The notes: generated by a model not told the origin, from the letters alone. DNA of 64,000 bases from Candidatus Latescibacterota bacterium (GCA_965219455.1 OZ244744.1:5568001-5632000); one strand, 5' to 3'. Shown: positions 179 to 25,626, numbered from the stretch's first letter. A program made the numbers and translations.

Positions 179-550
179 TCATGCATACGCGTCTGTTTCT
201 GGGATCTCCTTGACGCGCAGCACCGCCGCGACCACGGTCGACCCCATCCCCTTCATTGCGGGGTTTTCGCTCGTCGCGTCGACGAGGGCGTCATTGGCAG
301 CGTCGAGACAGACGCGCAGGCGATCCGGAATCGGTCCTTCCGTGCAGGGGTAGGTTTCCACGAAGGTCTTGACAACGATTCTGCTCGCCGTATCCCCGCT
401 GACGTGCCCCCCATCCCGTCGGCAAGCACCAGCACTTCGCCGCCGCCCACCTCGACATCACCGCCCTCGATCAGGCCGTAATCGTCCTCCTGGTTTTCCC
501 GCCCCCCGGGAATCTGCCGCGCGGCGAATCGTCCTTCCAAATTGGTTCAT
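179..550 (-). pseudogene. PP2C-family Ser/Thr protein phosphatase, frameshifted and truncated
   Basis: RENQED, VLADGMGG(H) and GMGSTVVAA motifs are spread over different frames. Frameshifts occur near 540 and in the G-run at ~408-413. Homology stops at ~205, next to the repeat. Confidence 0.8.
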
Positions 551-690
551 GGCGTTCCTCCAGTGCAACGCAAGACCGCAGCTTTTTCATGTATAGTGTC
601 GTCAATCACGGTACGTTGCGGTGTCCCTCGCCCACGGGCGCGGGGCAAGAGGGACACCACCCCCACCTCATCATGACCGTCCCAGGACGC

Positions 691-984
691 TCATTTAGGT
701 GTGTTTCCACGCTCCAAATTATTTATAAGGCGACTGATTCGATTTTCCATCCCTGCTAGGTTTGTCTCTGCGTTGTCCACCCGCGACTTTAAATTGTCCT
801 CTGCGTTGTCCACCCGCGACTTTAAATTGTCCTCTGTATGGCCAATTCGTTTCATCAGGCGACGTTCTACGTTGTCGATATGCTCGGCAAGTCGATCCTC
901 TGTACGGGCTTGCATGGTCCAGATGAAAACCATAATGGTAAGTCCTAAAGAAACCAGACTGGTAATTGTTCCGACCCGACCCAT
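691..984 (-). CDS. small membrane-anchored coiled-coil protein with 11-aa repeats
   Basis: N-terminal TM segment; DNLKSRVDNAE repeat; AAGGAAG upstream. Confidence 0.65.
   Translation of the reverse strand: MGRVGTITSLVSLGLTIMVFIWTMQARTEDRLAEHIDNVERRLMKRIGHTEDNLKSRVDNAEDNLKSRVDNAETNLAGMENRISRLINNLERGNTPK
766..836. repeat. 33-bp tandem repeat, 2 perfect copies plus a partial copy
   Basis: ctctgcgttgtccacccgcgactttaaattgtc at 766-798 and 799-831. Confidence 0.95.
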
Positions 985-1323
985 AGTGACTTCCTTTCAC
1001 TTAACGTGTGAGAACAAGCCGCGGAGGACGGTAACGCACGGCCGTTCGTTGAGTAATAGCGATCTTCAAACATTCGCAGAGAGATATTGTCGAACAATTC
1101 ACCGGACGTACTAAGGTTTGGGGCTGTCAGGATTTTTGTGTAAGTAGTGTTGGTGGATTAATGAAAAGGCACGCAATCTTCGTACACGATGGCGAAGCGA
1201 TTCAGTGCGACTTTCGAGCTGGTTATGGGTTTGGTCCATTGTTTGCCGACGTTGTGAAGGGCCAGAAACAGTAGCTCGATGGCGGTTCCATCGGACCTGG
1301 CTCCCTTACTTTTCCACATCGCT

Positions 1324-1944
1324 TCAGGCTTCGTTGTCGGTTTCCGTTACGCTGAACTTGATCTTATACCTTCCTTCTTTTTCCTCACCTGAGATACAGA
1401 GTTCCTCTTGGTCCGTATGTTTGAATTTGTGCGATCCTCTGAACAGGACTTTATCACTCCCTGCAATCTTTCTCAGGAGCAGAGCGTGCACATCGTCTGC
1501 AGCACCTCCCAAAGGTAGGGATAGGCCCGAATCACCTGGGATATGGCCCTTTATCTTTCCGATTACAGCTCCTACAAACCCCTTGGTGAGTTTCTCAAAC
1601 CTTTCCCAAGTACCTTTCCTGTCGACATCGAACACCGTGAACTGAATAGAGTGAAGACTTTTTCCATTAACCCTTTGGATATGCTGATCCCATTCGCCGA
1701 CCCTAACCATATCGAATTGAACGTATCTTTCCGTGTCATCACCACGAACATAGTTCGGCTCGCCGTATTTATCATTGGCGCACTCCCAAAACGCATGCAG
1801 GCTCGGCATAACCCGACTTTTTTCGTCGAGCTGGTTGTCTTCGTTGACGAACCTCAAGTCCACAACAAACCGAAAGTTGGCGGATTTGTCGGACAACTCT
1901 TTGGGAAATAGAAACTTTTTGAGAGTGAGTTCAAACGTTTTCAT
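1324..1944 (-). CDS. hypothetical protein (lower GC)
   Basis: Long ORF with an AGGAGG RBS before ATG at 1944. Confidence 0.7.
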   Translation of the reverse strand: MKTFELTLKKFLFPKELSDKSANFRFVVDLRFVNEDNQLDEKSRVMPSLHAFWECANDKYGEPNYVRGDDTERYVQFDMVRVGEWDQHIQRVNGKSLHSIQFTVFDVDRKGTWERFEKLTKGFVGAVIGKIKGHIPGDSGLSLPLGGAADDVHALLLRKIAGSDKVLFRGSHKFKHTDQEELCISGEEKEGRYKIKFSVTETDNEA

Positions 1945-2034
1945 GTGAGATCCCTCCTTAGACCGCGAAACGGCAGTGAATTTTGCGAACCGCGTCATTG
2001 ATGACCTGCGGCGGTGATCGATCCTACCACAGTC

Positions 2035-2268: not shown

Positions 2269-2769
2269 ATTGAATCCTCCTGACGATTTTAGAGACAACT
2301 CACCAAGTGAAGACACTTACGTTACTACCAAAGCATGCCGAATTTGAGGCACGTTTACGGTTACACTGAATTGCATTATTACGTCTAAATTGCACTCCTT
2401 TCCGAACTAGAGGCCAGAGGTCCGCCCGCCTTGAAATTGCCTCTTATTACCTGGAGCAGTAAATAGTTGACATCTATTGCGCCTGCTACGGTGGAGAGGA
2501 ACTTGCCCAAACGGGGACGCTGAGCTTGTCGAAGCGCCCGCGTTTCGGCACGTTTTTTCCTTCGCCGACCCTTCGACAAGCTCAGGGAGCGGCCCAGGGT
2601 GCCGGGTCAATGTTGTTGACAAAAGGTAAACTATCGGGTGCTCCCCGTGATATCTCACCTCCCGCTTCTCGTTTCGTCTGCACCGTCACACAGTTCATTG
2701 ATTTTCCGGTCTTGCTGTTCGCCTTTTGCTTCAAGCTGAATGCTGACGGCTGTACGCTGACGGCTTGTT

Positions 2770-5460
2770 TTACGGTGTAAGCGTCCGGGCAACTCGGAAG
2801 CCATTAATGATGATCCGCCACCGGTTAGGTTTCTCGAGGCCAAGCGCCCATTGGAACAGGTTTGAGCCCTCGAGCTTGCCACGAGCCGCCGAACGGAGAC
2901 CCCCGGGTCCGTGCAACCACGAACCGCCGCGAAACACGCGCCTTGAACAGTTACCGTGTTCCCACGCCGTTCCATCTGCAGGCGCTCCTGTATAACTGTC
3001 GTTCCAGCAGTCCTCCACCCACTCCGACACGTTCCCGTGAACGTCATATAGACCCCACGCATTGACGTTGAAACTACCTACAGATACCGTCTTTTCCCGA
3101 TACATGCCCTTGCGACCACCGCCATAGGTGTAGTCGCCATCGTAATTCGCTTGAGATGTCGAAATCGTCGTACCAAAATGAAACGGGGTCGTTGTTCCCG
3201 CACGCGCCACGTACTCCCATTCCGACTCACTCAACAGGCGGTACTGTTTACCCGTCCTTTGCGACAGCCATCGCACGTACGACTGCGCGTCGTTCCAACT
3301 CACGTTAATCACCGGCCGATTCCCGCGACCCCATCGCTTATCTTTCGGACGATGTCCTCCACAACCCCCGGCAGACACGCACGCATCCCATTCCGCAAAC
3401 GTCACCTCATACACACCCACCGAGAACCGATAGTCGATCCGCACACGATGCCGTGGACCCTCATCATCGTCACGCCCCGCCTCACTTCCGGGAGATCCCA
3501 TCATGAACGATCCCGATGGTACCACCACGATCTGGGGACATTCCGCACAGTCCCTGAATACCCTGCCTACTGCGTATTCACGCGCTTTTAATAATCGTCC
3601 CGTCAACTCCGACATCACTGACTCATCCATGTCAATTGCCCGCAGCGAATCCAAATACGCTCCCGCCTTATCCAATGCCTCTTCTTCCAGCGCTTCCTCA
3701 AACTTCCTCTTATATTCCGCAATTTTGTCCTGACGTAGACGTTCTGCCTCCTCTTCAGCCAGCCTTGCCATTTCCGCTTCCTGACGCCGCCGTTCGGCTT
3801 CCTGATGACGCTGTTCCGCCTCACGCGCCGCAGACAGGCGACCTGCCAACTCTGACAATAGGGGAGCAGATGCATTCACAGCACGTAGCGAATCCACGTA
3901 ACGACCAGCGGTATCGAAATCCTTCCGGCCCAGTGACTGATTATATTTTCCCTTGTATTCCGCCAATTTATCCTGGCGTAGACGTTCCGCCTTCTCGGCG
4001 GCCAACAGTGCGCGTTGCTTCTCCTGACGCCGTTGTTCCGCTACACGCGCCGCGGACAGGCGATCTTCCACGCCCGCCAATGCCGGCGCGTCGGCCCACA
4101 CACCCCATATCCGCGACACGTACTCATCCGCCTTATCGAAATCCTTCTCCCGCACCGACGCCTCGAACTTCGCCACGTAACGCCCGATCACGCTATCCAG
4201 ACCGGCGCTCGCTTGCTTGTGGCCGGGGTCCAATGCCAACACGGCCTGGTATTTCTCCCACGCATTGTTGCCCGCAGGACTCGTCAGACGATCCTGCACC
4301 AAGTCTTCAACAGCACCGGACATTAACGCGGATATCTTCGCATCCTGTTCCGCTTCTTGCGCCGGCCGACGCCGATCCGGACGATGGATGTTCTCATAGT
4401 AGTAATAGCCACCTCCGATCAGAAGCGCGAACACGCACAAGACCGCAGCGAACACCGCCCCGGTGCGTTTCCTTTTCCGCCTGACGGGTGGTATAACCGC
4501 CCGTCCGCTCCGCCTTGGTGCCACGGGGCGACCCTTAGCGGGCTCTGCGGCTGGACGCGGTTTCTTCGCGGTGCCCGGCGTCTTTCCGGAAAGCGCACTA
4601 CGCCACGCGCCCACGCTCTGCGGGCGGTCCCCCTCATCCACCTTCAACGCCCAATCTACCGCCGCCAGAAATCCTGCGCTCGCCTGACCCACGCCACACT
4701 CGGCCACGGGCGTCAATGGATCATTGCGCACCCGATCCGTCGCATCGTCCGGGACGCGACCCGTCAGCGCGTGGTAGCACACCGCGCCCAGCGCGTAAAC
4801 GTCCGTCCAGGGTCCCTGGTCGCCGCGACTGGAATACTGCTCGATCGGCGCGTAGCCCGGCGTGATAATCGACGTGACAGATCGGCTGCGCGAACCGATC
4901 GCCTGCCGCGCCGCGCCGAAGTCCAGCAGCACCGGCGACCTGTCTTCGTCACGGATGATGATATTACCGGGCTTGACGTCGCGGTGCAGAAAGTCAGCCC
5001 CGTGCACCAGCTCCAGGCCGTCCAGGATCGGATAGAGGATGGCCTTAAGATCCTCTTCGTTCAACGTCTTTCTGCTTCTCAGGACCTGGGAAAGCGTCTC
5101 CCCCTCGGCGTATTCCATCACGATATACGCCGTGCCGTGCGCCTCGAAAAACCGATACACGCCTATAATGTTGGGATGGTGGAAGCGGGCAAGGGTGCGC
5201 GCCTCGTCCAGGAATCGTTCCAGGCCCCACTCGAAGTCACCCCGGAACTGGCTCGCTTTCGGGACCACGCTGTTGTCGCCCGTGCGCGCGGCGATATCGT
5301 CCGGGAGATATTCCTTGACCGCAACCCCTTTGTCCAGGTTGTGGTCAAAACCCAGATACGTCATCCCGAAGCCGCCGAAACCGAGAACCCGCACGAGTTC
5401 GTATTCCTGCAGCCGATAGCCCTGGGGCAGGGCGTTAAGAGGATGTTGCGCGTCGTTCAT
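2770..5460 (-). CDS. Ser/Thr protein kinase - TM - helical stalk - FGE-sulfatase/CLec domain (K1)
   Basis: Kinase motifs GFGGFG, VAVKE, HRDVKPGN, DFG, GYAPIEQ; a TM helix; FGE motifs LLSESEWEYVARAG, GLYDVHGNVSEW, RGGSW, GFRVAR. Confidence 0.95.
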   Translation of the reverse strand: MNDAQHPLNALPQGYRLQEYELVRVLGFGGFGMTYLGFDHNLDKGVAVKEYLPDDIAARTGDNSVVPKASQFRGDFEWGLERFLDEARTLARFHHPNIIGVYRFFEAHGTAYIVMEYAEGETLSQVLRSRKTLNEEDLKAILYPILDGLELVHGADFLHRDVKPGNIIIRDEDRSPVLLDFGAARQAIGSRSRSVTSIITPGYAPIEQYSSRGDQGPWTDVYALGAVCYHALTGRVPDDATDRVRNDPLTPVAECGVGQASAGFLAAVDWALKVDEGDRPQSVGAWRSALSGKTPGTAKKPRPAAEPAKGRPVAPRRSGRAVIPPVRRKRKRTGAVFAAVLCVFALLIGGGYYYYENIHRPDRRRPAQEAEQDAKISALMSGAVEDLVQDRLTSPAGNNAWEKYQAVLALDPGHKQASAGLDSVIGRYVAKFEASVREKDFDKADEYVSRIWGVWADAPALAGVEDRLSAARVAEQRRQEKQRALLAAEKAERLRQDKLAEYKGKYNQSLGRKDFDTAGRYVDSLRAVNASAPLLSELAGRLSAAREAEQRHQEAERRRQEAEMARLAEEEAERLRQDKIAEYKRKFEEALEEEALDKAGAYLDSLRAIDMDESVMSELTGRLLKAREYAVGRVFRDCAECPQIVVVPSGSFMMGSPGSEAGRDDDEGPRHRVRIDYRFSVGVYEVTFAEWDACVSAGGCGGHRPKDKRWGRGNRPVINVSWNDAQSYVRWLSQRTGKQYRLLSESEWEYVARAGTTTPFHFGTTISTSQANYDGDYTYGGGRKGMYREKTVSVGSFNVNAWGLYDVHGNVSEWVEDCWNDSYTGAPADGTAWEHGNCSRRVFRGGSWLHGPGGLRSAARGKLEGSNLFQWALGLEKPNRWRIIINGFRVARTLTP

Positions 5461-5550
5461 GGTGGTAACCTCACGGTTTGTTCAATTGCGAAACCAATCC
5501 GGGGAGGGCAAGATGCCCTCGGTCCCGGGTAGAAGCGGTCAGCGATCAGC

Positions 5551-6307
<757 letters not shown>

Positions 6308-6560
6308 AGGAAGCAGACAGCTACAACCGGTTAACGATGCGGACATGCAAATTCGATCAGCGACGTCTGCGCCAACACGTGGGCAACCACAAGGGTTGCC
6401 CCTACAGCTTCAAAGACGGCGCTACGAGGGCAGGGATGCCCTCGATCCCGGGGGAACCTCGCGGGCAGAAACTCTCGCCCATATATCTCAGCGGCTACCG
6501 TCGATGCGTCCGCGCACAGGTTCGAATACTATGGTTTGTGGTAGAGGTACTATCGCGGAA

Positions 6561-6688
6561 ACGGGAGATTCTTCGACTTCGCTCAGAATGACATGTCTAT
6601 TAACAACCATCGGCCAGATGCATTGGCCATTCGTTGGCTCGGACTTCCATGCCTGAGGAAGCTTGCAGGCTGACGAAGCATCTCCTGA
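6561..6688. repeat. REP-like palindromic element, copy 2
   Basis: Matches 43-168. Confidence 0.75.
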
Positions 6689-6766
6689 TACATATCAACT
6701 ACAATCCCGCTGTGACAACGCTTTACCCGAAAGGCTGATTCGGGTATTATTATCCGTAAATTCGCT

Positions 6767-7180
6767 TTGAATTTGCTACGAATTGAAAGACATAATCGTG
6801 CCGGCAGACACCAATCCAACCACGCGATACAGAGGGATTCCGGGACAGGTCAACACACCCCTGGTATTCTTTCCCTGGCGCTTCTGGTCATTGAAGGTAT
6901 CATTGGATTTACTCTCGTCAATTCCAGACTCGACGCTGTACAACAATTCAACGTGATCTTGATCATGGCCGCCTTGTTTATGGCCGTTATCCTTGTTGTT
7001 GCGTATATTACGGTGAAATATCCGCTGAACTTAATGGATAAAGTGAACGAGAGCCTGGGACGCAATGAACTAATGGAAAAATACCTTGAAAGTGACGCGT
7101 TTAGAGACACTGTCGCAGATATCGTAGATGACATAGTCAAGAGGTCGCAGCCCGCGGAGGAGAAAAATGGATCTGAATGA
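6767..7180 (+). CDS. two-TM hypothetical membrane protein (start uncertain)
   Basis: Two hydrophobic helices; overlaps the start of the next gene. Confidence 0.55.
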   Translation: MNLLRIERHNRAGRHQSNHAIQRDSGTGQHTPGILSLALLVIEGIIGFTLVNSRLDAVQQFNVILIMAALFMAVILVVAYITVKYPLNLMDKVNESLGRNELMEKYLESDAFRDTVADIVDDIVKRSQPAEEKNGSE

Positions 7181-7436
7181 ACGGGAGACAATAAAGGATA
7201 TCGTCAGAGTCATCTATCACTCGAACGGTGACTGGCGCACACCCGGGGGTATAGCGCGAGACCTTGGAATCTCGTCTGAAACGGTGACCCACGTTGTCAA
7301 AAGCCATCCCGATTTCTTCATTATGGCGAGTGACGGACGGGTGAAATATGCGCTTCGACCCGCTGGTCTCGATCCGGTATCGCTTACTGAAAGCGCGCGA
7401 AGACAATATACCCAGGGGATGGCGCCGACTTCCTGA
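7167..7436 (+). CDS. small winged-helix/HTH-like protein, copy A
   Basis: WRTPGGIARDLGISSETVTHVV HTH-like segment; GGAGGAG RBS. Confidence 0.65.
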   Translation: MDLNERETIKDIVRVIYHSNGDWRTPGGIARDLGISSETVTHVVKSHPDFFIMASDGRVKYALRPAGLDPVSLTESARRQYTQGMAPTS

Positions 7437-7557
7437 CGATAGACGCTGAGGCCATCCTTCCCGTCTCGCGCGATCGGTCGCATCGACCATAAAGTGGCTG
7501 TAGACTTTCTGCTGATTGCTGATCTTGCGCGGACGACCCGTTCGAAACAGGTAGAAA

Positions 7558-7827
7558 ATGGATCCAGGTAAGCGAGAAGCCATAAAGGATATCGTCAGCG
7601 TTATCTTTCACTCGAACGGTGACTGGCGTACGCCCGGGGGCATTGCGAGAGATCTCGGAATCTCGTCTGAAACGGTGACCCACGTCGTCAAAAGCCATCC
7701 CGATTTCTTCATTCTGGCGAGCGACGGACGGGTGAAATATGCTATCCGTCTCGGCGGTTACGACGGCGTGTCGCTAACCGAGCGTGCGCCTGACCTGTAC
7801 CGCAGTGAGTTGACGCTGAGTTCCTGA
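7558..7827 (+). CDS. small winged-helix/HTH-like protein, copy B
   Basis: Near-identical to 7167-7436 over ~60 aa, with a divergent C-terminus. Confidence 0.65.
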   Translation: MDPGKREAIKDIVSVIFHSNGDWRTPGGIARDLGISSETVTHVVKSHPDFFILASDGRVKYAIRLGGYDGVSLTERAPDLYRSELTLSS

Positions 7828-7996
7828 CCCCTCGACGCTGATTCTCACCCACGTCCCGGTGTATACTTGCCGTTTCTCGCTTTTCGCGTCCACCATCTCG
7901 GTTATCGCTGTTTCTGCGCCGCCTGTGGGCCTGTTGATTTTCGGGTTTCGCTGTTCGCCTTATGCTTCAAGCTGAATGCTGAAGGCTGTACGCTGA

Positions 7997-10231: not shown

Positions 10232-10445
10232 GGTGATATCCTCAAAGCGTCTCCAACTCCCTGATCAGCCCTACGCTGGCAATGACATCCGCCAACCGAC
10301 CGCACCTACGGAAATGCTAGCAGCTGTCCGCAAATCCAGAGTTTTATCGGGATTCCCCCGGTTTTACCTCGGACATTACGTCCGCGTGCGGGCGTATTTA
10401 ATGCTTCAAGCTTTTTGCTAAGCGCTTACAGCTTGTTTGCCAGTT

Positions 10446-13178: not shown

Positions 13179-13293
13179 AGCGCTTTCCTCAGAATTTATC
13201 CTACTGTGTTTCCAACTATACGCGGACCGATACGTGCCTACCGGTTCTACACAGGCAGGCGTCCACGCAGCCAGTCTATCGTTGTGACAGGGA

Positions 13294-14034
13294 TTATTCT
13301 CTCGATCTCTCTTCCACGTCCTGCCAGTCGAACGCGTCGCCGCAGAGGGGCACGAAACGGAGAACCGTCGAACCAATATGAATGTGGCTATGCGCGGGTA
13401 GTTCAGTTGGAACCAGTACGGGCTGATCCCCCAGGTAGGTCAGGTTCTTGCCCCCGCCGTGCTGCACGAAAAACTTCCTGCCGCGGGGATCGTAGGTCAC
13501 AACGGCGTGACCGCCGCGGGAAATCTGATTATCGCCGAAGTCCAGGCTGACGCGGGCGGTTCTCCCGCGCCCGATCGGATTGGAACCATTACCCAGCTGA
13601 AGGGCCTTTCCTTTTCCCGGCCCCTCGACGATCGCCAGCCACCCCACAACCGGGTCATTCATGCCGTCGGCTTCCACGGCGGGCTCCCGCCTGTCACCCG
13701 GCCTGGGGCCCGCGCCCACGTTGATAACGGTGCGTTCCTCCTCTTTTCCCGATCCGGGCGACGCGACGCGCTCCTTCTTACGTCGTCCAACGGGGAAGTC
13801 GGTTGCCGATTCCGTTTGTCCCATCGGTTTTGTGGGCTCATCCAGACGACCCGCACCGGCGACGTCACCTCCCCGCTCCGGTACAGGTTGCCGCCCCGGC
13901 TTTGTGGGTTCATCCGAACCTCCCCCGGTTTGACGGCCACCCTGAGGCGCCGGCGGCAACGGTTTCTCTTTGAAGTCTGTCGGCTTGCTTTTTTCTTCGA
14001 TGATATTGCCATCGGCATCACGGTAAACGGGCAT
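13294..14034 (-). CDS. FHA domain protein with a disordered, Thr-containing N-terminus
   Basis: VVGWLAIVEGPGKG...IGRG...DNQISRGGHA; GGAGG RBS before MPVYRD. Confidence 0.88.
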   Translation of the reverse strand: MPVYRDADGNIIEEKSKPTDFKEKPLPPAPQGGRQTGGGSDEPTKPGRQPVPERGGDVAGAGRLDEPTKPMGQTESATDFPVGRRKKERVASPGSGKEEERTVINVGAGPRPGDRREPAVEADGMNDPVVGWLAIVEGPGKGKALQLGNGSNPIGRGRTARVSLDFGDNQISRGGHAVVTYDPRGRKFFVQHGGGKNLTYLGDQPVLVPTELPAHSHIHIGSTVLRFVPLCGDAFDWQDVEERSRE

Positions 14035-14237
14035 AACAAAGTCCTCCAAGAGCGGTGAGAGGTAAGAGGTGAGAAGTGAGATGGAGGTCCCGCATCTCTG
14101 GTCTCCCTTAGTCAGGGTCTCGTAATTCTCCTTCCGATACGCGGAGAGAGGCGGGAGTCTTGTGTTTTGTAGTAAGACCTTTAAGCAAAATACATTCGCC
14201 CAGACTCGTGCTGTTTCCTTCGGGTGAGGGGTTGGCA

Positions 14238-14372
14238 TCCCCCCACCGCATCAGCCGTCGCCGGTCCCTTCGACACGCTCAGGGCAGCGCCTTCGACAAT
14301 CCTTCGACAGGCTCAGGACAGGGCTCAGGGAACCGGCTCGGCTTCTGCGACTCCCCCTCAAGGGGGGAGTGA
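14238..14372. repeat. composite intergenic repeat (CCCCACCGCATCAGCC...CTTCGACAxGCTCAGG...CTCCCCCTCAAGGGGG)
   Basis: Second copy at ~19917-20031; CTTCGACAxGCTCAGG also at ~2570 and ~59584. Confidence 0.75.
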
Positions 14373-14526
14373 TGGCGAGTTCAGGACGCGATGCTCCGTG
14401 CGAAGAAAGAGCGATACAACGGAGTACGCGCGGGTCGTCTTGCCTCTCCCGTCCTGTGCCGTGGGTGAGAAGGTTTCGGCGAGGCGGCGGGGTGGTCCTC
14501 TCCCGTCTAACGTCTCCCCGATTCTG

Positions 14527-15300
14527 CTATTTTTCATACAGCCGGTTAATCAGATTATCCAGACAGTACTGCCCCGACCGGTTCAGTGCCATTTCCTCTT
14601 TCTGCTGCACGACATGCAGGGCAAACACGAGCAACGCCGATTGGACGAGGGCAAGAAGGGTCGTGTAGAACGCCACGCCCAGCCGCCCGGTGATCTCCGG
14701 CAGCAGATTCGGATCCTGTGGATTTTCATTGCTTCCGGCATAATCCAGCGCCAGGGCGATCCCCACAACCGTGCCGATAAAACCCAGCGTGGGGACCAGC
14801 CAGACGAGGTACCGCAGCATGTTGTATTTGAGTTCAAGCTCGTGTTGAAATAATTCAAGGGAAGAATTCATGAGGGAATTGGCCTGGTTGACGGACCCGC
14901 TGCCCTGAAACTGCAGGATGCAGCGCATGATCAGACGCTGCAGAAAGTACGTCGGCTCCCCTTCCGCCGGCCGCAACCGGTTATAGAGGGGGCCCAGGTC
15001 CTGTGATCGCAGCATGCTCGAATCGTCTTCCGGGAGATATCGCATCGTGAGTTGCGTCGTCTCCATGTTGGATTGGTTGAACCGCCGCCACAACTCCCCG
15101 CAACCGATGAAAAACATAATCCACATGGTATTCTGGATGGTAAACGGATAGGTATTCGCCTGGCGATCGAGCAGGAAATCGCCCGCCATAGAATCGCCGC
15201 TTGTGAAAAGGAAGCTCATTACCGCAATGAAAACAACGCCGATGACCACGCTCACGCCGAATGCGATCAGCCGTAGATTCGTCTCGGAATTCCGTTCCAT
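14527..15300 (-). CDS. MotA/TolQ/ExbB proton channel family protein
   Basis: VPTLGFIGTVVGI and LGVAFYTTLLAL motifs; ATG at 15300 lies 1 nt after the upstream stop. Confidence 0.9.
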   Translation of the reverse strand: MERNSETNLRLIAFGVSVVIGVVFIAVMSFLFTSGDSMAGDFLLDRQANTYPFTIQNTMWIMFFIGCGELWRRFNQSNMETTQLTMRYLPEDDSSMLRSQDLGPLYNRLRPAEGEPTYFLQRLIMRCILQFQGSGSVNQANSLMNSSLELFQHELELKYNMLRYLVWLVPTLGFIGTVVGIALALDYAGSNENPQDPNLLPEITGRLGVAFYTTLLALVQSALLVFALHVVQQKEEMALNRSGQYCLDNLINRLYEK

Positions 15301-15301
15301 A

Positions 15302-15688
15302 TCAGCCCTCGTCTGGAATGATTTCACCTGTGTCCGGATTGCGGCGAACGTTGCCCTCCGGAAGGGCGTCCGCCGGCTTTGGGCCTGCAGCCGGGCGCCC
15401 CGGGTCAGGATCGCCCCTCGATTCGAGTCCCTGCAGCAGTCCGAGCGCGCTTGTCTGGTGACGACCGAGGAGAATCGCATCCGCGGGGGAAACGAATTCC
15501 TGCCTGATGCGTATCCACTCGCCGTTCCGCGCCACGTAACTGCCGTTCCTGCTCGCACAATCGGTCAGATAGTACGACCCCTTCGCGGTCACGACCAACT
15601 CGGCGTGGACACGTGAGACCGTGGCGTCGTCTACTTGAATTTCCACGTCCGTACCGCGACCGATTCTATACGTCGAAAAGCCGGACAT
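15302..15688 (-). CDS. small FHA domain protein
   Basis: IGRG..D...DATVSRVHAEL...D..SRNGSYV. Confidence 0.92.
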   Translation of the reverse strand: MSGFSTYRIGRGTDVEIQVDDATVSRVHAELVVTAKGSYYLTDCASRNGSYVARNGEWIRIRQEFVSPADAILLGRHQTSALGLLQGLESRGDPDPGRPAAGPKPADALPEGNVRRNPDTGEIIPDEG

Positions 15689-15699
15689 TGCGGGATCCT

Positions 15700-16527
15700 C
15701 TACCGGTGTGTGACGCGCATATTGCCTTCGGCATCCACGGTGATCGTCGCAACCAGCACCTTGTCACCTACTCTTCTGAGCCGTATCTGCCGCAAAGGCG
15801 TCTGGCCGTCCGGCGTCAAAACACCACCCCGTACAAGCACACTTTCTTCGGTGGCGGAGTTGAAGTATTTGTAGTAGACCTGGTAGGTCCCTGCCTCTGC
15901 CAACGGATGCAGCCAGATTTCATTGCCTGGGCCCCTTGTATTGTCCTCTTCCAGGTTTGCCCGAGAACCGGAAAACGAACGGTTCCCGTAATAGAACTCC
16001 CGCCCAGCGGGATCGAGTACGTGCAGGTCGATATCGTCACCTGTATTCCAACTCATGATGATCAAGAGGAATTTCTTCCGCGCCTGCGCCTGACACGACG
16101 ACAGGTCCGCCTCGAGTTCCCGGTTACGGCTCTCGCAAGCCCCCAGGGCGTTACGCGGTACGGAGCCCTGCTGCTGCGCCTCACACGCCGCAAGCTGTCC
16201 TTCAAGCTGCCGGTTAAGTTCTTCGCAGGCGGCCAGGGCATCCGGGGATACCGACGCCTGCTGTTGTTCTTCACACGCTGCCAGGGCCGCCTGGACCTGC
16301 TGGTTGCGGCTTTCGCACGCGTTCAGTTCCCCTCTCGCTGCCTGTAACTCATTCTGGACGCTCTCAAGGCGCGCCATGACTTCCGCCACCCGCTCGGCTG
16401 CATCGCCGGTGTTCGGGAAGTACGGAAACAGGACGAAGGCAATGAGAATAAATGCTCCCATCGCCGAGGCGAACAGGTCAAGCGCCGACATACTGAAGAT
16501 ATTGAGTTCCCTGCTGCGGGATTTCAT
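15700..16527 (-). CDS. TM (Asp-containing) - Cys-rich coiled coil - YfaP/DUF2135-like domain protein
   Basis: SALDLFASAMGAFIL TM; repeated LxACE; SWNTGDDIDLHVLDP...EDNTRGPGNE. Confidence 0.75.
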   Translation of the reverse strand: MKSRSRELNIFSMSALDLFASAMGAFILIAFVLFPYFPNTGDAAERVAEVMARLESVQNELQAARGELNACESRNQQVQAALAACEEQQQASVSPDALAACEELNRQLEGQLAACEAQQQGSVPRNALGACESRNRELEADLSSCQAQARKKFLLIIMSWNTGDDIDLHVLDPAGREFYYGNRSFSGSRANLEEDNTRGPGNEIWLHPLAEAGTYQVYYKYFNSATEESVLVRGGVLTPDGQTPLRQIRLRRVGDKVLVATITVDAEGNMRVTHR

Positions 16528-16542
16528 GGCGCGGCACTCCTC

Positions 16543-18075
16543 TCAGGATTTGGAAACCATCAACTCCACGCCACCGGGCGCAACGGTGGCGCCATAATCC
16601 AGACGCTCCGGACGAAAGGGAGGCAGGCGACGGCGATTCAGAAACGTCCCGTTGCTCGAGTTCAGATCTTCGATACGAAATCCATTGTCAACAGCGCGGA
16701 TTCTCACGTGACGCCTGGATACATTGTCATCGTGGATGACTTCATCCACAAGATCCGGATGCCTGCCCAGCGAAAGTCCCAGCCGTTGTCCCTCTAATTT
16801 TTCGGGCGATAGCGCGATGCGAACGCGGTTGCCCCCGCCGTCGAACCCGGCCAGCACCAGACCGTGTCCCGTGCGCTGCCCTTCCGGTGTTCCTTCAACC
16901 GCCCCGTCGTGAGTTCTTCTCCTGATCGGCCGGCTCAACTGTTCCGCGACGTGGATGATCTGCTGCCGTGGTTTCTTCAGGCCAAGCAGCAGGGCCGCCA
17001 GGGTCAAGGCGCCAAGCAATGTCCCACCGATGAGAAACCGCCGGCTCGCCTCTTCCGCCTGGAGGCGCGTCGTTTCTATTTCCCGGCTTGCTTCTTCCGC
17101 CTGTCGCGCGGCCTCACCCGCCTGTTGTTTCGCTTCCTCCGCCTCCTGGCGCGTGCGTCCTGCTTCCCGGGTCGCTTCATCCGCGCGCCGCGTCGCTTCT
17201 TCGGCCTTACGCCGCGTCCTTGCTGTTTCCCGGGTTGCTTCTTCCGCCTTTCGCCGGGCCTCGCCCGCCTGTCGTTTCGCTTCTTCCGCCTCACGGCGGG
17301 CATTTTCCGCCTCCTCGGATCCTCCGGCTCCACCCGCCGGCAAACACGGACTGGTTTCCGGTGGTTGGAAAGAGATTCGGTGATCGCGCAGCAGCCTTGC
17401 CAATTCCTCAATGTGGGAAGACCAGTATATTCCCGCCGCGTGGGGCACACGGGTGACTCCCTCGGACCGGCTTTCGATCACAACCAGAGACGCCTGCGTA
17501 TTCACGCCGATGACCCTCCCGCAGTCATCCACGAGGGGACCGCCGCTGTTGCCGGGGTTCGTAGGCGCGTTGTGTTGAATGATCCTGAATCTCTGCGTGT
17601 GCCACGCCCCGGAGAATATCCTGCCGATAACGCCATCCTGCACAGTTGCATCATCGGCGAGACCCTCTCTGTCGGCGCCTCCCGGATAGCCGATTGCCCA
17701 TACTTTCTGTCCTGTCTTTAATTCCGCGAGCGAAAGCTGCATCGGTGGAAGATTGATCCCACGCGACTGAATGATTGCCAGATCGCGTTCAGAGGACACG
17801 GCAACCACCCTGGCGTCGTACAGGGTATTGGACTTTGCCGGTCGTACTCTGATCCGGCCGCCGCCGTCAATAACATGGACGTTTGTGGCGATGTAACCGC
17901 GTTCGTTGATCACAAATCCTGTACCGGTACTGGTCCCCCGACGCGTCTCGTTCAGAATCCGCACAACACTCTTCTTGAGTGCATCCAGGTCCGGACTGGC
18001 AACGGCATGATGCCCGTGAAAGAGCAACGCCAGAAGGAGATAGACAGGACTTATCGATCTGATCATGTTCTGCAT
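16543..18075 (-). CDS. trypsin-like serine protease - coiled coil - TM - FHA
   Basis: Signal peptide; intact triad TNVH, RDLA, GNSGGP; C-terminal LGR...VSRRH...DLNSSNGT. Confidence 0.93.
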   Translation of the reverse strand: MQNMIRSISPVYLLLALLFHGHHAVASPDLDALKKSVVRILNETRRGTSTGTGFVINERGYIATNVHVIDGGGRIRVRPAKSNTLYDARVVAVSSERDLAIIQSRGINLPPMQLSLAELKTGQKVWAIGYPGGADREGLADDATVQDGVIGRIFSGAWHTQRFRIIQHNAPTNPGNSGGPLVDDCGRVIGVNTQASLVVIESRSEGVTRVPHAAGIYWSSHIEELARLLRDHRISFQPPETSPCLPAGGAGGSEEAENARREAEEAKRQAGEARRKAEEATRETARTRRKAEEATRRADEATREAGRTRQEAEEAKQQAGEAARQAEEASREIETTRLQAEEASRRFLIGGTLLGALTLAALLLGLKKPRQQIIHVAEQLSRPIRRRTHDGAVEGTPEGQRTGHGLVLAGFDGGGNRVRIALSPEKLEGQRLGLSLGRHPDLVDEVIHDDNVSRRHVRIRAVDNGFRIEDLNSSNGTFLNRRRLPPFRPERLDYGATVAPGGVELMVSKS

Positions 18076-18078
18076 ATT

Positions 18079-19656
18079 TCACTCCGGCATCAGACGCACC
18101 CGAAAAACGACGGGGCCCATCCCGAGTTCATCATTGTTGTCCAGGACAACATGTTCACCGGGAGATATCAGACGCCCATTGATCGTCGTACCGTTCGTGG
18201 AGTTCAGATCCTCCGCGTAGAGGCGCCCGCCGGTATAGATGAGCCTGACGTGTTCGCGGGAGACGGCTTCGTGGTCGATTATGAATTCCGAGTTGGCGGG
18301 ACTTCTCCCCAGCGCGACTCCGGACGGCAGCGCCAGCGCCGGAATGCTCAACACAAACGGCCGCCCGGTGTCGTCCTGGCCCTCCAGTAAACACCTGAAC
18401 GGCGCGGGGTGAGGCGCGCGCGCCGCGGCCTGCCGCGCGGCTTCGGCCTCCCGTTCCGCCTCGCTGGCACGGGATGAACTGCTCTGCACCTGCGCCTTCT
18501 TCGAGCGGGCGAACAGGAACCAGCCCAGAAGCAACAGAATGACGAAGGCAGCCCCTGCAACTACGGTCCATCGAAACCGTTCGGACGCCTCTTCCTGGCC
18601 CTTCCTGTTGACCTCTGCCAGGCTATCCCGAGTTGCTTCGAGTCGATCTGCCGCCGCCCTTCTTATGGAATCCGCACGCGCGCGGGCCAGGGAATCCGCC
18701 CTTGCGTGCGCCCGTGTCAAACTGTCTTCCCGCGCATGTTTCAAGGAATCGCCCCGGGCCTGCGCGCGTTCGAGGCGTCCTCTTTCTGCCCTCAGGCGTT
18801 CCTCCGCCGCCGCCTTAATGGAGTCCTCCCGCGCCTGATTCAGGGAATCGGTCTTTGCCCGTTCCCGTCTCAGACTGTCTTCACGTGCCTGTGTCAGGGA
18901 ATCTGTTCGTGCCTGCGCCCGTCTCAAGCTGTCTTCCCTCGCTTCCGCCCGTTCAATGGCAGTCAGGCACGCGTCGTCAACCACGGTATGGGCGATTTCC
19001 CGTTCCCTGAGCGCGGCAATGACGTCGCCGCTGCGCAGGGCGAAGACGGTTCCCCTGGGATCCTTGACGTTCCGGAACGGCCAGCGCCCGCTATCCGGGT
19101 CCGGCAGGTTGATTCCGATTACCTTCCCACATTCATTAAACACGGGCATACCGAACGCCCTGGACTTCACGATGGCGTTGTGCTGCAGCAGATGTACGAG
19201 GGAATCGGCGGCGGTTCTGCCGAGTATGTCCTGGTGGGCGCCGATGGTACCGCGCGCAATCCGGACACTGTCACCAGCGGTGAATGTGAGGGTCTCCACC
19301 ACCCGTCCCACGTCCGACCCCTGCACAGACAGACTCAGGGGCGGGGATCCCAGGCCCTGCACGCGCAACAGAGCGAGGTTCATCTCGCGGCTGGCAAACA
19401 CCTCCTGCGCCACGATCTCCGCACCCGTCTTCAGGGACAATACCGTTACCCGGTCCGCATTCGCCAGGAGATGCGCGTTGGTCAGCACGTCCCCGTTTCC
19501 ATTCACGACAAAGCCGCTCCCTTCCGCCGCGACCTTGTTATATCTGTACGCACGCACCCGGACAACGCTCTCGGATACGACGTCGACGTCGGTCTGCCCG
19601 AACGCCGGGCCGGCCAGTGCGAACACAGCGATTTGCACAAGCAACGAGACACGCAT
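18079..19656 (-). CDS. catalytically inactive trypsin-like domain - repeat stalk - TM - FHA
   Basis: TNAH is present, but the Asp site reads MNLALL and the Ser site reads AFGMP; (R/E/A)DSL repeats; FHA VSREH...STNGT; AGGAG RBS. Confidence 0.85.
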   Translation of the reverse strand: MRVSLLVQIAVFALAGPAFGQTDVDVVSESVVRVRAYRYNKVAAEGSGFVVNGNGDVLTNAHLLANADRVTVLSLKTGAEIVAQEVFASREMNLALLRVQGLGSPPLSLSVQGSDVGRVVETLTFTAGDSVRIARGTIGAHQDILGRTAADSLVHLLQHNAIVKSRAFGMPVFNECGKVIGINLPDPDSGRWPFRNVKDPRGTVFALRSGDVIAALREREIAHTVVDDACLTAIERAEAREDSLRRAQARTDSLTQAREDSLRRERAKTDSLNQAREDSIKAAAEERLRAERGRLERAQARGDSLKHAREDSLTRAHARADSLARARADSIRRAAADRLEATRDSLAEVNRKGQEEASERFRWTVVAGAAFVILLLLGWFLFARSKKAQVQSSSSRASEAEREAEAARQAAARAPHPAPFRCLLEGQDDTGRPFVLSIPALALPSGVALGRSPANSEFIIDHEAVSREHVRLIYTGGRLYAEDLNSTNGTTINGRLISPGEHVVLDNNDELGMGPVVFRVRLMPE

Positions 19657-19916
19657 AAACAGACTCTCCTGAAGAAAGTGATAGGTATCACGTGTACGGA
19701 CGGGACGGACGATTTTGAGGTTTTGTCCTGTCCATATATCCCAATTTTGCGCATTCAAATCTTGCGGGCGAGGACGCCCGCGTTCCCAGGGGGTACCCTG
19801 AGGGCGAGTGCGTCCGCCCGAGTTTGTTGACGATAGCTTCAGCCCCAGTTGCAGCGGAAGCCGCGGAAGATTCTTCGACTCCGCTCAGAATGACAGGGCG
19901 ACGAATGACGTTGACG

Positions 19917-20031
19917 TCCCCCCACCGCATCAGCCTTTGCCTGCCCTTCGACAAGCTCAGGGGACCGGCTCGGCTTCTGCCTGCCTGTCCTGCGGACGCA
20001 GGCAGGCGACTCCCCCTCAAAGGGGGAGCGA
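19917..20031. repeat. composite intergenic repeat, copy 2
   Basis: Matches 14238-14372, with an inserted GCCTGCCTG...GCAGGCAGGC palindrome. Confidence 0.7.
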
Positions 20032-20161
20032 TGCGGTGTGAAGGCGCTTTCTCAATGGGTTCGCCAACAGCGCAATCGACGCGCGGGTTATTTGGTTATC
20101 GGGTTCCGTTGTTTACACCCGAGCGAGACACGCAGTCAGCCGGTCGATCCCGGAAAAATCG

Positions 20162-20212
20162 CCAGGGGGGCGCAGCCCCCCTGGACCCCCGTAAGGCGTA
20201 AAGAGGTAAAGA
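20162..20212 (-). promoter_or_regulatory. putative DGR target-recognition signal: TCTTTACCTCTTTAC tract plus 10-bp GC hairpin
   Basis: CCAGGGGGGC-TGC-GCCCCCCTGG (20162-20184), 29 nt after the K4 stop codon; could also act as a terminator. Confidence 0.7.
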
Positions 20213-20213
20213 C

Positions 20214-20345
20214 TTAAGGGTTAAGCGTCCGGGCAATACGGAAACCGTTGTCGTAGTACCGTTCGCCGGAGGAGTCCCTGTCGCGGTCCGCGGCGCGGAG
20301 GTACCTTGGGTTGCTGTCCCACGAGCCGCCGCGCAACACGCGACG
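20214..20345 (-). other. putative DGR variable repeat (VR)
   Basis: Between TCG TGG and GGT TTC CGT, 11 codons are AAC or one change from AAC, all with a third-position C. Confidence 0.78.
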
Positions 20346-22661
20346 CGCGCAATCACCGCGCTCCCACACCGATCCGTCAGAAGGGGCGCCCGTATAGCTG
20401 TTGTTCCTGCAATCTCCCACCCACTCCCATACGTTCCCGTGCACGTCGTACATTCCCCACGCGTTCGCCGAAAACGAACCCACAGGCGCCGTCTTCTCAT
20501 TGTCCCACCGACTACCGCACCCGTTGCAATTCGCTCTGTTGTGACCGATCTCATTCCCCCAGTTGTACCTCGTCGTCGTTCCCGCTCGCGCCACGTACTC
20601 CCACTCCGACTCGCTCAGCAGACGATACCTTCCTCCCGTCCTTTCCGACAACCACCGAACGTACAACTGCGCGTCATCCCAACTCACCCCCATCACCGGG
20701 CGGTTCCCACGGCCCCAGCCGCTGTCATTCGGACGATGTCCTCCACAACCCCCAGCAGATACGCACGCGTCCCACTGTGCAAACGTCACTTCATACACCC
20801 CAACCGCGAACCGATAGCCGATCCGCACGCGATGACGCGGACCCTCGTTCTCATAACGCCCCGTCTCCCCGCGCGGAGACCCCATCATGAACGATCCCGA
20901 CGGCACCACCACCATCTCCGGACATTCTGCACAGTCCCTGAATTTTCCGCCTACCGTCCTGCGCAGCCGCTGGGTTTCTCGCGCTGCCGACAGACGGCCT
21001 TCCTTCCCGGACAACACGCCCGCAGATGCATTGACAGAACGCAGCGATTCCACGTACCTGCCCGCGGCATCGAAATCATTCCGACCGAGCGATTCCTCGA
21101 ACTTCCGCTTATATTCCGCGATTTTAGCCTGACGAAGACGTTCTGCCTCCTGTGCGGCCAGCCGCGCCTTCTGCGCCCCCCGCGCCTCCGAAAGGCGACG
21201 CTCCAATCCCGGCAACACCGGCGCGTCGGCCCACACCCCGCGGATCCGCGAGACGTACCCTCCCGCCTTTTCGAAATTCCTGCCTCGCAACGCCGTCCCG
21301 AACTTCATCACGTAACGAGCTACAATGGTGTCCAGGCCCGCCGTCGCCTTTCGATGACCCGGCAACAGTTCCAACACCGCCTGATATTTCTCCCACGCAT
21401 TCGCGCCCGCGGGGCTTGTCAGTCGATCCCGCTCCAGGTCTTCGGCAGCGCCGCGCAACAATTCGGATATTTTTTCATCTCGCTGACGCTTCACCACATC
21501 CTCTGCCGCGGTTTGTCTCGCTATCACGGTTTCCTGCGCGCGGCGACGCTGGTCGGGGACATAGATATATTTATAGTAAGCGTAGCACCCTCCGATCAGA
21601 AGAGCCAACACGCACACGACCACGGCGGCGAACACCGGTCCTTTGCGCTTTTTGGGAGTCGCCGGACGGTCATCGGTGGCCCGATGGCCTGGCGCCGCGG
21701 CCGGCGCTCCCGCCCCTCTGACGCCCCCGCTCGACCGTTCCCCAGTACGTGCAGGCGCCGGCGAAGGCACGTCGTCCGACGTCGCTCCGGATAGCGCAGC
21801 ACGCCAGGCGGCCACGCTCTGCGGCCGGTCCGCCTTATCGACCTTGATCGCCCAATCGATCGCCGCAAGAAGGTCGGCGCCCGCCCGGCCCGCGCATCTC
21901 TCGGACACCGGAATCACCGCATCACCTATCACTCGTTCCGTGGCATCGGCCGGCGCCTCACCGGTCAACGCGCGATAGCACAGAGCGCCCAACGCGTACA
22001 GGTCCGTCCAGGGGCCCTGGTCGCCCTGGGTCGAATACTGCTCGATGGGCGCGTAGCCCGGCGTGATGATCGACGTGACCGATTTGCTCCGCGCGCCGAT
22101 CGCCTGCCGCGCCGCGCCGAAGTCCAGCAACACCGGCGAATTGTCCTCGTCACGGATGATGATATTGCCCGGTTTGATGTCGCGGTGCAGGAAGTCGGCC
22201 CCATGCACTACCTCGAGGCCGTCCAGGATCGGATTCAGGATGGCCTTGAGTTCTTCTTCTTTCAACGTCCATTTACGATCGAGATACGCCGAGAGGGTCT
22301 CCCCCTCGGCGTATTCCATCACGATATACGCCGTGCCGTGCGCCTCGAAGAAACGATGGACTTTGATGATGTGCCGATGGTCGAAGCGGGCCAGCGTGCG
22401 CGCCTCATCCAGGAATCTTTCCAGGCCCCACTCGAAGTCACCCCGGAACTGGCTCGCCTTCGGGGCCACGCTGTTATCGGCCGTGCGCGCAGCGATGTCG
22501 TCCGGGAGGTACTCCTTCACGGCCACGCCCTTGTCCAGGTTATGGTCAAAGCCCAAATACGTCATCCCGAAGCCGCCGAAACCCAGCACCCTCACCAGTT
22601 CGTACTCCTGGAGGCGGTGCCCCTGCGGCAGGGCGTTCAGAGGATGTTCCGCGTCGTTCAT
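20214..22661 (-). CDS. Ser/Thr kinase - TM - stalk - FGE-sulfatase/CLec domain (K4), putative DGR target
   Basis: Kinase motifs HRDIKPGN, DFG, GYAPIEQ; TM; FGE ending RVLRGGSWDSNPRYLRAADRDRDSSGERYYDNGFRIAR. Confidence 0.95.
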   Translation of the reverse strand: MNDAEHPLNALPQGHRLQEYELVRVLGFGGFGMTYLGFDHNLDKGVAVKEYLPDDIAARTADNSVAPKASQFRGDFEWGLERFLDEARTLARFDHRHIIKVHRFFEAHGTAYIVMEYAEGETLSAYLDRKWTLKEEELKAILNPILDGLEVVHGADFLHRDIKPGNIIIRDEDNSPVLLDFGAARQAIGARSKSVTSIITPGYAPIEQYSTQGDQGPWTDLYALGALCYRALTGEAPADATERVIGDAVIPVSERCAGRAGADLLAAIDWAIKVDKADRPQSVAAWRAALSGATSDDVPSPAPARTGERSSGGVRGAGAPAAAPGHRATDDRPATPKKRKGPVFAAVVVCVLALLIGGCYAYYKYIYVPDQRRRAQETVIARQTAAEDVVKRQRDEKISELLRGAAEDLERDRLTSPAGANAWEKYQAVLELLPGHRKATAGLDTIVARYVMKFGTALRGRNFEKAGGYVSRIRGVWADAPVLPGLERRLSEARGAQKARLAAQEAERLRQAKIAEYKRKFEESLGRNDFDAAGRYVESLRSVNASAGVLSGKEGRLSAARETQRLRRTVGGKFRDCAECPEMVVVPSGSFMMGSPRGETGRYENEGPRHRVRIGYRFAVGVYEVTFAQWDACVSAGGCGGHRPNDSGWGRGNRPVMGVSWDDAQLYVRWLSERTGGRYRLLSESEWEYVARAGTTTRYNWGNEIGHNRANCNGCGSRWDNEKTAPVGSFSANAWGMYDVHGNVWEWVGDCRNNSYTGAPSDGSVWERGDCARRVLRGGSWDSNPRYLRAADRDRDSSGERYYDNGFRIARTLNP

Positions 22662-25549: not shown

Positions 25550-25626
25550 TGGTCGGGGCGCCCGGATTCGAACCGGGGGCCTCCTGCTCCCGAAGCAGGC
25601 GCTCTACCGGACTGAGCCACGCCCCG
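25550..25626 (-). tRNA. tRNA-Pro(CGG)
   Basis: Cloverleaf; anticodon arm CCTGC-TTCGGGA-GCAGG; GGTTCGAATCC; CCA end. Confidence 0.97.

Follow-up and report, generated by a model that had tools for sequence, protein, structure and literature searches.

The window analyzed here, 64,000 nucleotides of the genome of Candidatus Latescibacterota bacterium (GCA_965219455.1, OZ244744.1; genome coordinates 5568001–5632000 of contig C1 of the source genome, G000), holds a signaling locus of receptor Ser/Thr kinases, FHA proteins, trypsin-like proteins, and a putative proton motor. With modest confidence, we read it as one of two tandem cassette copies amid an array of receptor kinases whose sensors are diversified by a diversity-generating retroelement (DGR), the whole serving envelope surveillance for variable ligands. 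Gene calls from open reading frame (ORF) listings and Pfam scans of the window proteins agree with an earlier note on this DNA, which had placed eleven genes on one strand. All lie on the minus strand in the order K4, TrypA, TrypB, P275, FHA128, MotA-like, FHA246, K3, K2, K1, and a PP2C fragment, where K1–K4 are receptor kinases, TrypA and TrypB join a trypsin domain to a transmembrane (TM) helix and an FHA domain, P275 is a TM/coiled-coil protein, and the MotA-like protein is a TolQ/ExbB-like channel subunit (Table 1). The spacing of 1–15 nucleotides given in that note for the five central genes (14527–19656) was recovered from the ORF coordinates as 3, 15, 11, and 1 nucleotides.

The window covers about half of a ∼50-kb locus with two cassettes, eight kinase-FGE genes (seven whole and one split), and one DGR. 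On the same strand as the window genes, the 28 kb before the window hold four further kinase genes, the DGR, the second cassette, and two intact copies of PP2C (NCBIfam Stp1 family, E 9e-41). The proteins of the second cassette are 77–94% identical to those of the window copy, and its whole central set is kept. An in-frame stop (genome 5561379–5561387) separates one sister kinase from its FGE domain. The PP2C gene of the window is the remnant that had been suspected, covering residues 4–111 of a 343-residue intact paralogue with a frameshift near position 412.

Recurrence across genomes argues that the genes belong to a single conserved unit. The set is the same in twenty 20-kb loci from the phylum, and a scan of species-representative genomes gave 80 loci, including those from the phylum. 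By record titles, from which the taxon counts are taken and in which bin labels may be wrong in places, 32 of the 80 are Latescibacterota/Latescibacteria and 48 are others; the latter include Gammaproteobacteria of several orders, Binatia, Rhodospirillaceae, Hyphomonadaceae, Verrucomicrobiales, Vicinamibacterales, Gemmatimonadota, Parabeggiatoa, and Corallincola platygyrae JCM 18796, a cultured carrier of the vWA variant described below. The window proteins were mapped by tblastn onto the loci, all of which had been found via the MotA-like gene, and 62 of these are at least 18 kb long. Among the long loci, a kinase is present in 61, a P275-like partner in 59, a trypsin-FHA gene in 57, PP2C in 55, FHA128 in 50 (and in 65 of the 80 related loci), FHA246 in 41, an FGE domain in 34, and a DGR-type reverse transcriptase in 2. 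In 49 of the 62 the core is complete, with the TolQ-like channel and a membrane partner that bears the Asp, a kinase with PP2C, two FHA proteins, and a pair of trypsin-TM-FHA proteins, one dead and one live; the genes thus do co-occur across genomes as the earlier note had supposed. Membership of the cassette is kept between lineages, and gene order is shuffled. All of these domains are common and promiscuous in bacteria, and unrelated signaling and membrane genes might simply have come to adjoin one another; given the same set across phyla in changed order, and central genes so closely spaced, we give chance clustering next to no credence.

The distribution of the cassette is patchy. Of 168 genomes of the phylum, 38 encode the MotA-like protein (E 1e-10 or better); they fall into 8 of 49 genera, and no match came from any of the 14 other species of this genome's genus. 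The protein is 65–86% identical across three families of the phylum, and a search of 1.84 billion clustered proteins puts its subfamily at 146 representatives (E 1e-30 or better). This spread, together with the similarity across phyla, gives the cassette the look of a horizontally moved accessory element. Among 41 flanking ORFs in six diverse loci there are no shared neighbors and no secretion-system genes, which speaks against its being the accessory part of a known secretion system, an outcome that the earlier note had considered. One locus (L143, titled Nitrosopumilus sp.) places a MotA-like gene, two vWA partners, an FHA gene, and a kinase-FGE gene on an archaeon-binned contig; this bacterial-type cassette in an archaeal bin is probably a binning error.

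K1–K4 all keep the Gly-loop, VAVK, HRD, and DFG motifs of Hanks kinases and have a single TM helix after the kinase domain (residues 343–361 in K4), so the repeat region and the FGE/CLec domain would face outward; membrane topology of the cassette proteins was read from simple hydropathy. K4 accordingly runs from a cytoplasmic Hanks kinase through a TM helix and periplasmic repeats to an FGE/CLec domain at its C terminus. The DGR, complete with bAvd, reverse transcriptase, and template repeat, sits 8–9 kb outside the window, and its template encodes RVLRGGSWNNKPRNLRSANRNRNTTGKRNNNNGFRIARTL. The template was compared with the 3′ ends of the eight kinase/FGE genes over a 113-nucleotide core (31 A, 82 other bases). 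The cleanest DGR target is the free-standing FGE gene beside the reverse transcriptase, which has mismatches at 19/31 template adenines versus 0/82 positions elsewhere. The corresponding values are 16/31 versus 2/82 for the kinase at genome 5544983, 14/31 versus 6/82 for the kinase at genome 5565132, and 13/31 versus 7/82 for K4 (Fisher p 1e-4), whose variable region is ∼29 kb from the matching template. These adenine-specific marks on their 3′ ends indicate that the DGR serves kinases of this locus. The variable region of K3 has decayed (19/31 versus 21/82), K2 is out of register with the template (23/31 versus 57/82), and K1 has lost register and has an insertion in its C-terminal region (21/31 versus 41/82). 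For the kinase at genome 5542002, alignment to the template needs a gap and yields no clean mismatch score.

DGR hairpins aid target recognition, and a 3′ flank with a 10-bp GC hairpin is common to three of the eight kinase-gene ends, those of K4 and of the two targets closest to the retroelement (the proximal target and the kinase at 5565132). In the pattern scan this flank was not found after K1–K3, and five of the eight ends have a different flank. The hairpin after K4 may also act as a terminator. Because K4 alone keeps a template-matching variable region together with the hairpin, it appears to be the only kinase of the window credible as a present-day variable receptor. The proposal of DGR-variable receptors made in the earlier note thus stands as to a real DGR, adenine-specific marks, and K4 as a target, but the DGR proves to lie outside the window and the variable regions of K1–K3 are decayed. 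Near-identical copies of the kinase at 5542002 in other assemblies give four clean alignments with two or three differences each, and a fifth copy is a 391-residue fragment with 16 differences. N841Y, at an adenine-templated codon, is common to all five copies, a weak hint of recent DGR activity. Contigs from four sequencing runs that align to window positions 2700–22699 were short and fragmentary, with paralogues and repeats confounding the variable regions.

The association of DGR and cassette appears to be repeated independently in a gammaproteobacterial genome. Five genomes with FGE-rich cassettes were searched whole with the reverse transcriptase protein, and a homologue is present in two of them, both gammaproteobacterial. 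In the first (G168), the reverse transcriptase is 49% identical and is directly followed by a template. Three kinase-FGE genes on the flanks of the cassette match this template at their 3′ ends, with mismatches of 16/30 at adenines versus 1/89 elsewhere, 19/30 versus 1/89, and 18/30 versus 0/89. In the second (G171), the reverse transcriptase (71% identical) is encoded ∼4 kb beyond the cassette locus, and the template differs at 10/30 versus 1/92, 17/32 versus 1/94, and 20/32 versus 1/94 positions from three FGE genes. Two relatives within the phylum have remnants of the reverse transcriptase only.

The channel subunit is predicted to have a TolQ fold. The best matches of its model (pLDDT 69) are TolQ chains (probability 1.0), followed by ExbB, MotA, and ZorA, and the TM-scores are 0.46–0.65 over the TolQ rows listed and 0.53–0.65 for the top five. 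The genome has two canonical ExbB/TolQ genes, one beside a single Pfam ExbD gene and the other beside two; in Pfam scans, no ExbD gene adjoins either cassette copy. A candidate for the second motor subunit is P275, which consists of an N-terminal TM helix, a coiled-coil stalk of ∼110 residues, and a β-sandwich head. P275 and all its orthologues share the N-terminal motif ELNIFSMSALDLFASAxGAFILI, which by eye resembles the N termini of the genome's own ExbD proteins, and Asp17 in the membrane helix is invariant (17/17 and 15/15 aligned sequences). P275 itself has no Pfam ExbD match. At least 865 proteins belong to its family (E 1e-5 or better), and none of the best 120 members listed carries an informative name.

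A motor of TolQ fold would also suit housekeeping maintenance of the envelope, Tol-Pal-like or resembling the actinobacterial FhaA/FhaB-PstP-PknAB set, with lectin domains sensing glycans of the cell's own wall or outer membrane and the DGR incidental. Actinobacterial FHA/PP2C/kinase sets regulate wall synthesis, and the presence of FGE in only 34 and of the reverse transcriptase in only 2 of the 62 long loci fits such a role. We nevertheless consider it unlikely, as 130 of the 168 genomes in the phylum and every one of the 14 other congeneric species lack the gene, one genome carries two diverged copies, and neither the window nor the six other loci show wall-synthesis genes linked to the cassette. 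A hypermutated sensor for a constant self ligand would, moreover, make little sense.

The head of P275 in this genome is a β-sandwich of ∼120 residues (model pLDDT about 90 over residues 153–275) with a predicted TerD-like fold. It matches a TerD homologue with Z 10.4 (root-mean-square deviation 3.5 over 124 residues) and Klebsiella TerD with Z 9.3, the only chains with Z of at least 8 among 48,161, and Foldseek also gives a TerD-like match (E 1.5e-4). There is no Pfam TerD match for P275 at E up to 10, and its profile finds coiled-coil matches only among PDB sequences. The label YfaP-like, under which the protein had first been described, was rejected; the Pfam match to DUF2135 has E 0.47 and 11 bits versus a cut-off of 22, over 17 residues. 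Most P275 orthologues (48/80 loci) have a vWA head with a DxSxS motif, and the TerD-like head, found in this genome and in 15/80 loci, seems to replace it. FGE-type kinases occur in 15/16 loci with a TerD-like head versus 14/48 with a vWA head (L073–L152, 80 loci; kinship uncorrected). That the TerD-like head is nearly always accompanied by FGE kinases suggests that head and kinase sensor work together in the periplasm.

The vWA head of so many loci could alternatively serve adhesion, gliding, or substrate capture, the motor moving an adhesive vWA/TerD-like head and the kinases tuning it, by analogy with Agl-Glt. FHA128 has a weak NCBIfam match to GltG (E 7.7e-6, far below cut-off), and a gliding-type role for vWA transducers is suggested in PMC12204202. 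The GltG score, however, reflects a generic FHA domain only, no outer-membrane or gliding partners are conserved beside the cassette in six loci, and gliding machines have nothing that corresponds to the proteases or the four FHA domains. A role of this kind therefore strikes us as quite improbable.

TrypA and TrypB each have an N-terminal hydrophobic segment resembling a signal peptide, a coiled coil, a later TM helix (residues 365–383 and 348–366, respectively) with basic residues, and then the FHA domain, an arrangement that would place the protease domains in the periplasm and the FHA domains in the cytoplasm. In TrypA, Asn replaces the catalytic Asp and S[RK]AFGMP replaces GNSGGP, as in 10/10 A-type sequences aligned; TrypB keeps His, Asp, and Ser, as do 6/6 B-type sequences. 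The pairing of a pseudoprotease with a protease, as first described, is thereby borne out, with TrypA predicted to be catalytically dead and TrypB an active HtrA-like (S1C) protease. TrypB has no PDZ domain by Pfam, and all NCBIfam scores are far below cut-offs. The residues by which FHA domains bind phospho-Thr, GR...SR.H...NG, are conserved. In FHA246, a conserved N-terminal motif precedes a disordered linker and a C-terminal FHA domain; its long ORF begins at 14238, and 19/20 orthologues examined begin at residue 69 of that ORF. Two Thr in the linker, within [LFY][DE]xxT and E[ED][RK]T[RV][LIV], are invariant in an alignment of 15 sequences (14 full length) and are candidates for phospho-acceptors.

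That an active protease is anchored beside a channel partner whose stalk is long and exposed raises the thought of abortive-infection defense, in which an activated kinase would recruit TrypB, the P275 stalk would be cut just outside the membrane, and the unplugged channel would leak protons, leaving the infected cell depolarized or dormant. Stators leak protons once the MotB plug is removed, and the defense motor ZorAB resembles MotAB. The hypervariable sensors and the patchy, seemingly horizontal distribution are in keeping with defense, but no known defense-system model in PADLOC fits, and no conserved defense-island neighbors occur in the window and six other loci. In addition, single-protease variants of the cassette (e.g. 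L063, L064, and L066) keep the dead TrypA only, so cleavage cannot be essential to the core, and we think this explanation unlikely. The same variants suggest that the pseudoprotease is probably a binding or scaffold module and cleavage an optional output.

For envelope surveillance, the reading that we prefer, the following mechanism can be proposed. A ligand would bind the periplasmic CLec domain of a kinase and switch on its cytoplasmic kinase domain, which would phosphorylate Thr, most likely in its own juxtamembrane segment and at the two invariant positions of the FHA246 linker. FHA domains in the cytoplasm, four in all (TrypA, TrypB, FHA128, and FHA246), would dock on phospho-Thr and so gather the protease pair, one dead and one live, beside the activated receptor together with a proton motor of the TolQ-like5:P275(2) type. 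In the periplasm, TrypB would then act as a protease and the proton motor would move the stalk and head of P275; PP2C would reset the switch. Given a hypermutable sensor, one would expect a variable ligand, probably of foreign or environmental origin (phage, competitor, or polymer), which would favor envelope surveillance over housekeeping. The hypermutable sensor, the patchy distribution, and the cross-phylum similarity together point to an accessory role in conflict or surveillance, and an immune-like role of the locus is plausible.

Several observations weigh against this reading. The expected co-occurrence of cassette and DGR was seen in the two gammaproteobacterial genomes (2/5 searched whole) but is not general; a DGR-type reverse transcriptase lies within 10 kb of the MotA-like gene in only 2/62 long loci, so hypervariation would be an add-on and not a defining part of the cassette. 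The window copy, with three of its four variable regions decayed and its PP2C broken, may be partly degenerate. When P275 is compared by hhalign with ExbD proteins of the same genome, the score is weak (probability 5.5%, E 0.007, 24 columns), the motor complex and its 5:2 stoichiometry are putative, and the kinase substrates and FHA partners are guesses. The locus counts are descriptive, since related genomes are not independent counts. Finally, no system model of PADLOC-DB 2.0, a resource that the earlier note had recommended, fits the cassette; the matches are to generic kinase (PD-T4-6, mad6) and protease-domain models, with a weak ZorA2 match (E 2e-6). P275, FHA128, and FHA246 have no meaningful PADLOC match, and NCBIfam gives no system-level name for the cassette. 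In PADLOC, PP2C matches PDC-M21C only, with no TerY model among the rows listed; the TerY-P triad combines vWA, PP2C, and kinase.

More tentatively, the locus could be a repertoire-type receptor system, in which one template diversifies several kinases that all feed one motor-protease effector via phospho-Thr and FHA domains. If this doubtful but attractive idea were true, it would provide a membrane-level analogue of many variable receptors sharing one effector pathway for unforeseen non-self ligands and would give a function to a widespread orphan cassette. The locus joins two orphans, DGR-diversified kinases and the TolQ-like/FHA-protease cassette, and offers a first functional hint for each: for the cassette, a possible response to variable ligands that are sensed beyond the cytoplasm; for the variable kinases, a concrete candidate effector. 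The existence of a cultured carrier, C. platygyrae JCM 18796, makes the idea testable.

That the gene combination matched no named system, as the earlier note had remarked, appears to hold for the cassette as a whole and fails for its motor pair. Our full-text literature search, with the supplementary gene-neighborhood tables of PMC7159879, PMC10907252, and PMC12204202 outside its scope, gave no description of a kinase/PP2C/FHA/protease/TolQ-like cassette and nothing on what such a cassette does. Only the TolQ-like/vWA motor core appears in print before, as a prediction: section 8 of PMC12204202 (Mol Biol Evol 2025, msaf138) describes a predicted TolQ-like pentamer with an Asp-bearing trans-pore helix and a vWA head, a 5:2 motor. 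As there, the TolQ-like gene here has no adjoining tolR/exbD, the membrane-anchored partner helix carries a putative proton-binding Asp, and most P275 orthologues have exactly the vWA head. Unlike those motors, the locus here and 15 others have a TerD-like β-sandwich head, and one partner gene takes the place of a heterologous pair. In the text of that paper as available, "kinase" and "trypsin" do not occur and the sole match to "FHA" is "FhaC"; PP2C and DGR were not among the terms searched for.

On the receptor side, DGR-diversified Ser/Thr kinase-CLec proteins of cyanobacteria (PMC7517822, BMC Genomics 2020) and the DGR "antigen sensors" of multicellular bacteria (PMC10907252, PNAS 2024) likewise combine a Hanks kinase with a C-terminal CLec/FGE domain bearing the variable region and have several paralogous targets per template. 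The kinases here differ in surrounding a defined FHA/PP2C/protease/motor cassette, and their host belongs to Latescibacterota, not a known multicellular organism; nothing found here speaks to multicellularity, for which the phylum label alone was considered. Neither "FHA" nor "MotA" occurs in the available text of these two papers, which names no downstream partners for kinase targets. The link of a DGR to the cassette is new, and the TerD-like head and DGR-fed kinases are best filed as a variant of a widespread proton-motor cassette.

Other envelope systems share single features with the cassette. TolQ-TolR-TolA and ExbB-ExbD-TonB have the same MotA_ExbB channel family with a TolQ fold and a partner helix with an Asp, whereas the cassette partner is not a Pfam ExbD protein, there is no TolA/TonB-like transducer, and kinase, phosphatase, FHA, and protease components are coupled to the motor. 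In the threonine-phosphorylation pathway of the type VI secretion system (T6SS; PpkA/PppA/Fha1-TagH), a membrane Hanks kinase, a PP2C, and a reader with an FHA domain govern how an envelope machine is assembled. The same three components are present here, along with weak NCBIfam TagH matches, but FHA is fused to periplasmic proteases, the machine is a TolQ-like motor, and no T6SS genes occur in the window and six loci. Zorya (ZorAB) similarly uses a MotA-family channel outside motility in a patchy accessory locus, and ZorA stands low in the fold list; the cassette, however, lacks ZorB, ZorC, ZorD, and the long ZorA tail, and TolQ is the better structural match. Compared with HtrA/DegP (S1C), TrypB keeps the triad without PDZ, and TrypA lacks the catalytic Asp and Ser.

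Table 1. Features of the locus and its surroundings (window positions unless marked as genome coordinates)
Feature	Position	Strand	Evidence or remark
K4, receptor Ser/Thr kinase, 815 residues	20214–22661	−	Pfam Pkinase E 1e-36, FGE-sulfatase E 3e-53
K4 variable region	20230–20342	−	Template comparison
GC hairpin, 10-bp stem	20162–20184	−	Pattern scan; ∼30 nucleotides past K4 stop
TrypA, trypsin-TM-FHA	18079–19656	−	Pfam Trypsin_2 E 6e-16, FHA E 7e-16
TrypB, trypsin-TM-FHA	16543–18075	−	Pfam Trypsin_2 E 1.5e-30, FHA E 1.6e-14
P275, TM/coiled-coil protein, 275 residues	15700–16527	−	
FHA128, small soluble FHA protein, 128 residues	15302–15688	−	Pfam FHA E 1e-13; directly before MotA-like gene
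MotA-like (TolQ/ExbB-like) channel subunit, 257 residues, 3 TM helices	14527–15300	−	Pfam MotA_ExbB E 2e-10, above cut-off
FHA246, 246 residues from conserved start	13294–14034	−	Pfam FHA E 2.7e-6
K3, receptor kinase paralogue	10446–13181	−	Pfam
K2, receptor kinase paralogue	7997–10231	−	Pfam
K1, receptor kinase paralogue	2770–5460	−	Pfam
PP2C phosphatase remnant	218–540	−	tblastn with intact paralogue
Kinase-FGE gene	genome 5565132–5567777	as window genes	Outside window
Split kinase, kinase part, 649 residues	genome 5561385–5563334		
Split kinase, FGE part, 230 residues	genome 5560689–5561381		
DGR reverse transcriptase, 393-residue RVT_1 ORF	genome 5559045–5560226		E 1e-14; contains IGNLTSQ, YVDD
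bAvd accessory gene	just upstream of reverse transcriptase		E 4.9e-17
DGR template repeat, core	genome 5559043–5558931		Outside window
Group II intron remnant without ORF	5551–6281	−	Rfam group-II-D1D4-4 106.6 bits, Intron_gpII 46.4 bits
Full group II intron with reverse transcriptase/maturase	genome 5548288–5549658	+	Sister cassette; strand opposite to locus genes
Tandem 89-residue ORFs	7167–7436, 7558–7827	+	
Short intergenic repeat	∼14200–14380, ∼19860–20000, ∼22720–22900, 34–134, 6307–6652		∼20–50 genome copies
Three ORFs between K1 and PP2C remnant	1324–1998, 2035–2316, 691–984	−	
tRNA-Pro(CGG)	25550–25626	−	
tRNA-Pro(GGG)	26861–26937	−	
tRNA-Arg(CCG)	34521–34598	−	

The surroundings of the cassette contain several further elements. 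A group II intron remnant lies between K1 and K2, and at least 12 copies of a group II intron reverse transcriptase are present in the genome. Between K2 and the intron remnant, two tandem 89-residue ORFs fall within a 235-nucleotide direct repeat of 82% identity, one of them with a very weak MarR-type helix-turn-helix match (E 0.036). The short intergenic repeat enlarges the gaps K4–TrypA (557 nucleotides) and MotA-like–FHA246 (492 nucleotides), and contig depth at this repeat is ∼50-fold above that of neighboring sequence. G+C is lower (52.5%) where three ORFs separate K1 from the PP2C remnant, and these ORFs look like an insertion. The 224-residue ORF among them (1324–1998) has no significant family match in Pfam, PADLOC, or NCBIfam, and the other two have none in Pfam; because the 224-residue ORF was found in 0 of 100 related loci, it is not part of the cassette. 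On the higher-coordinate side past K4, the three tRNA genes lie amid ordinary transport and envelope genes.

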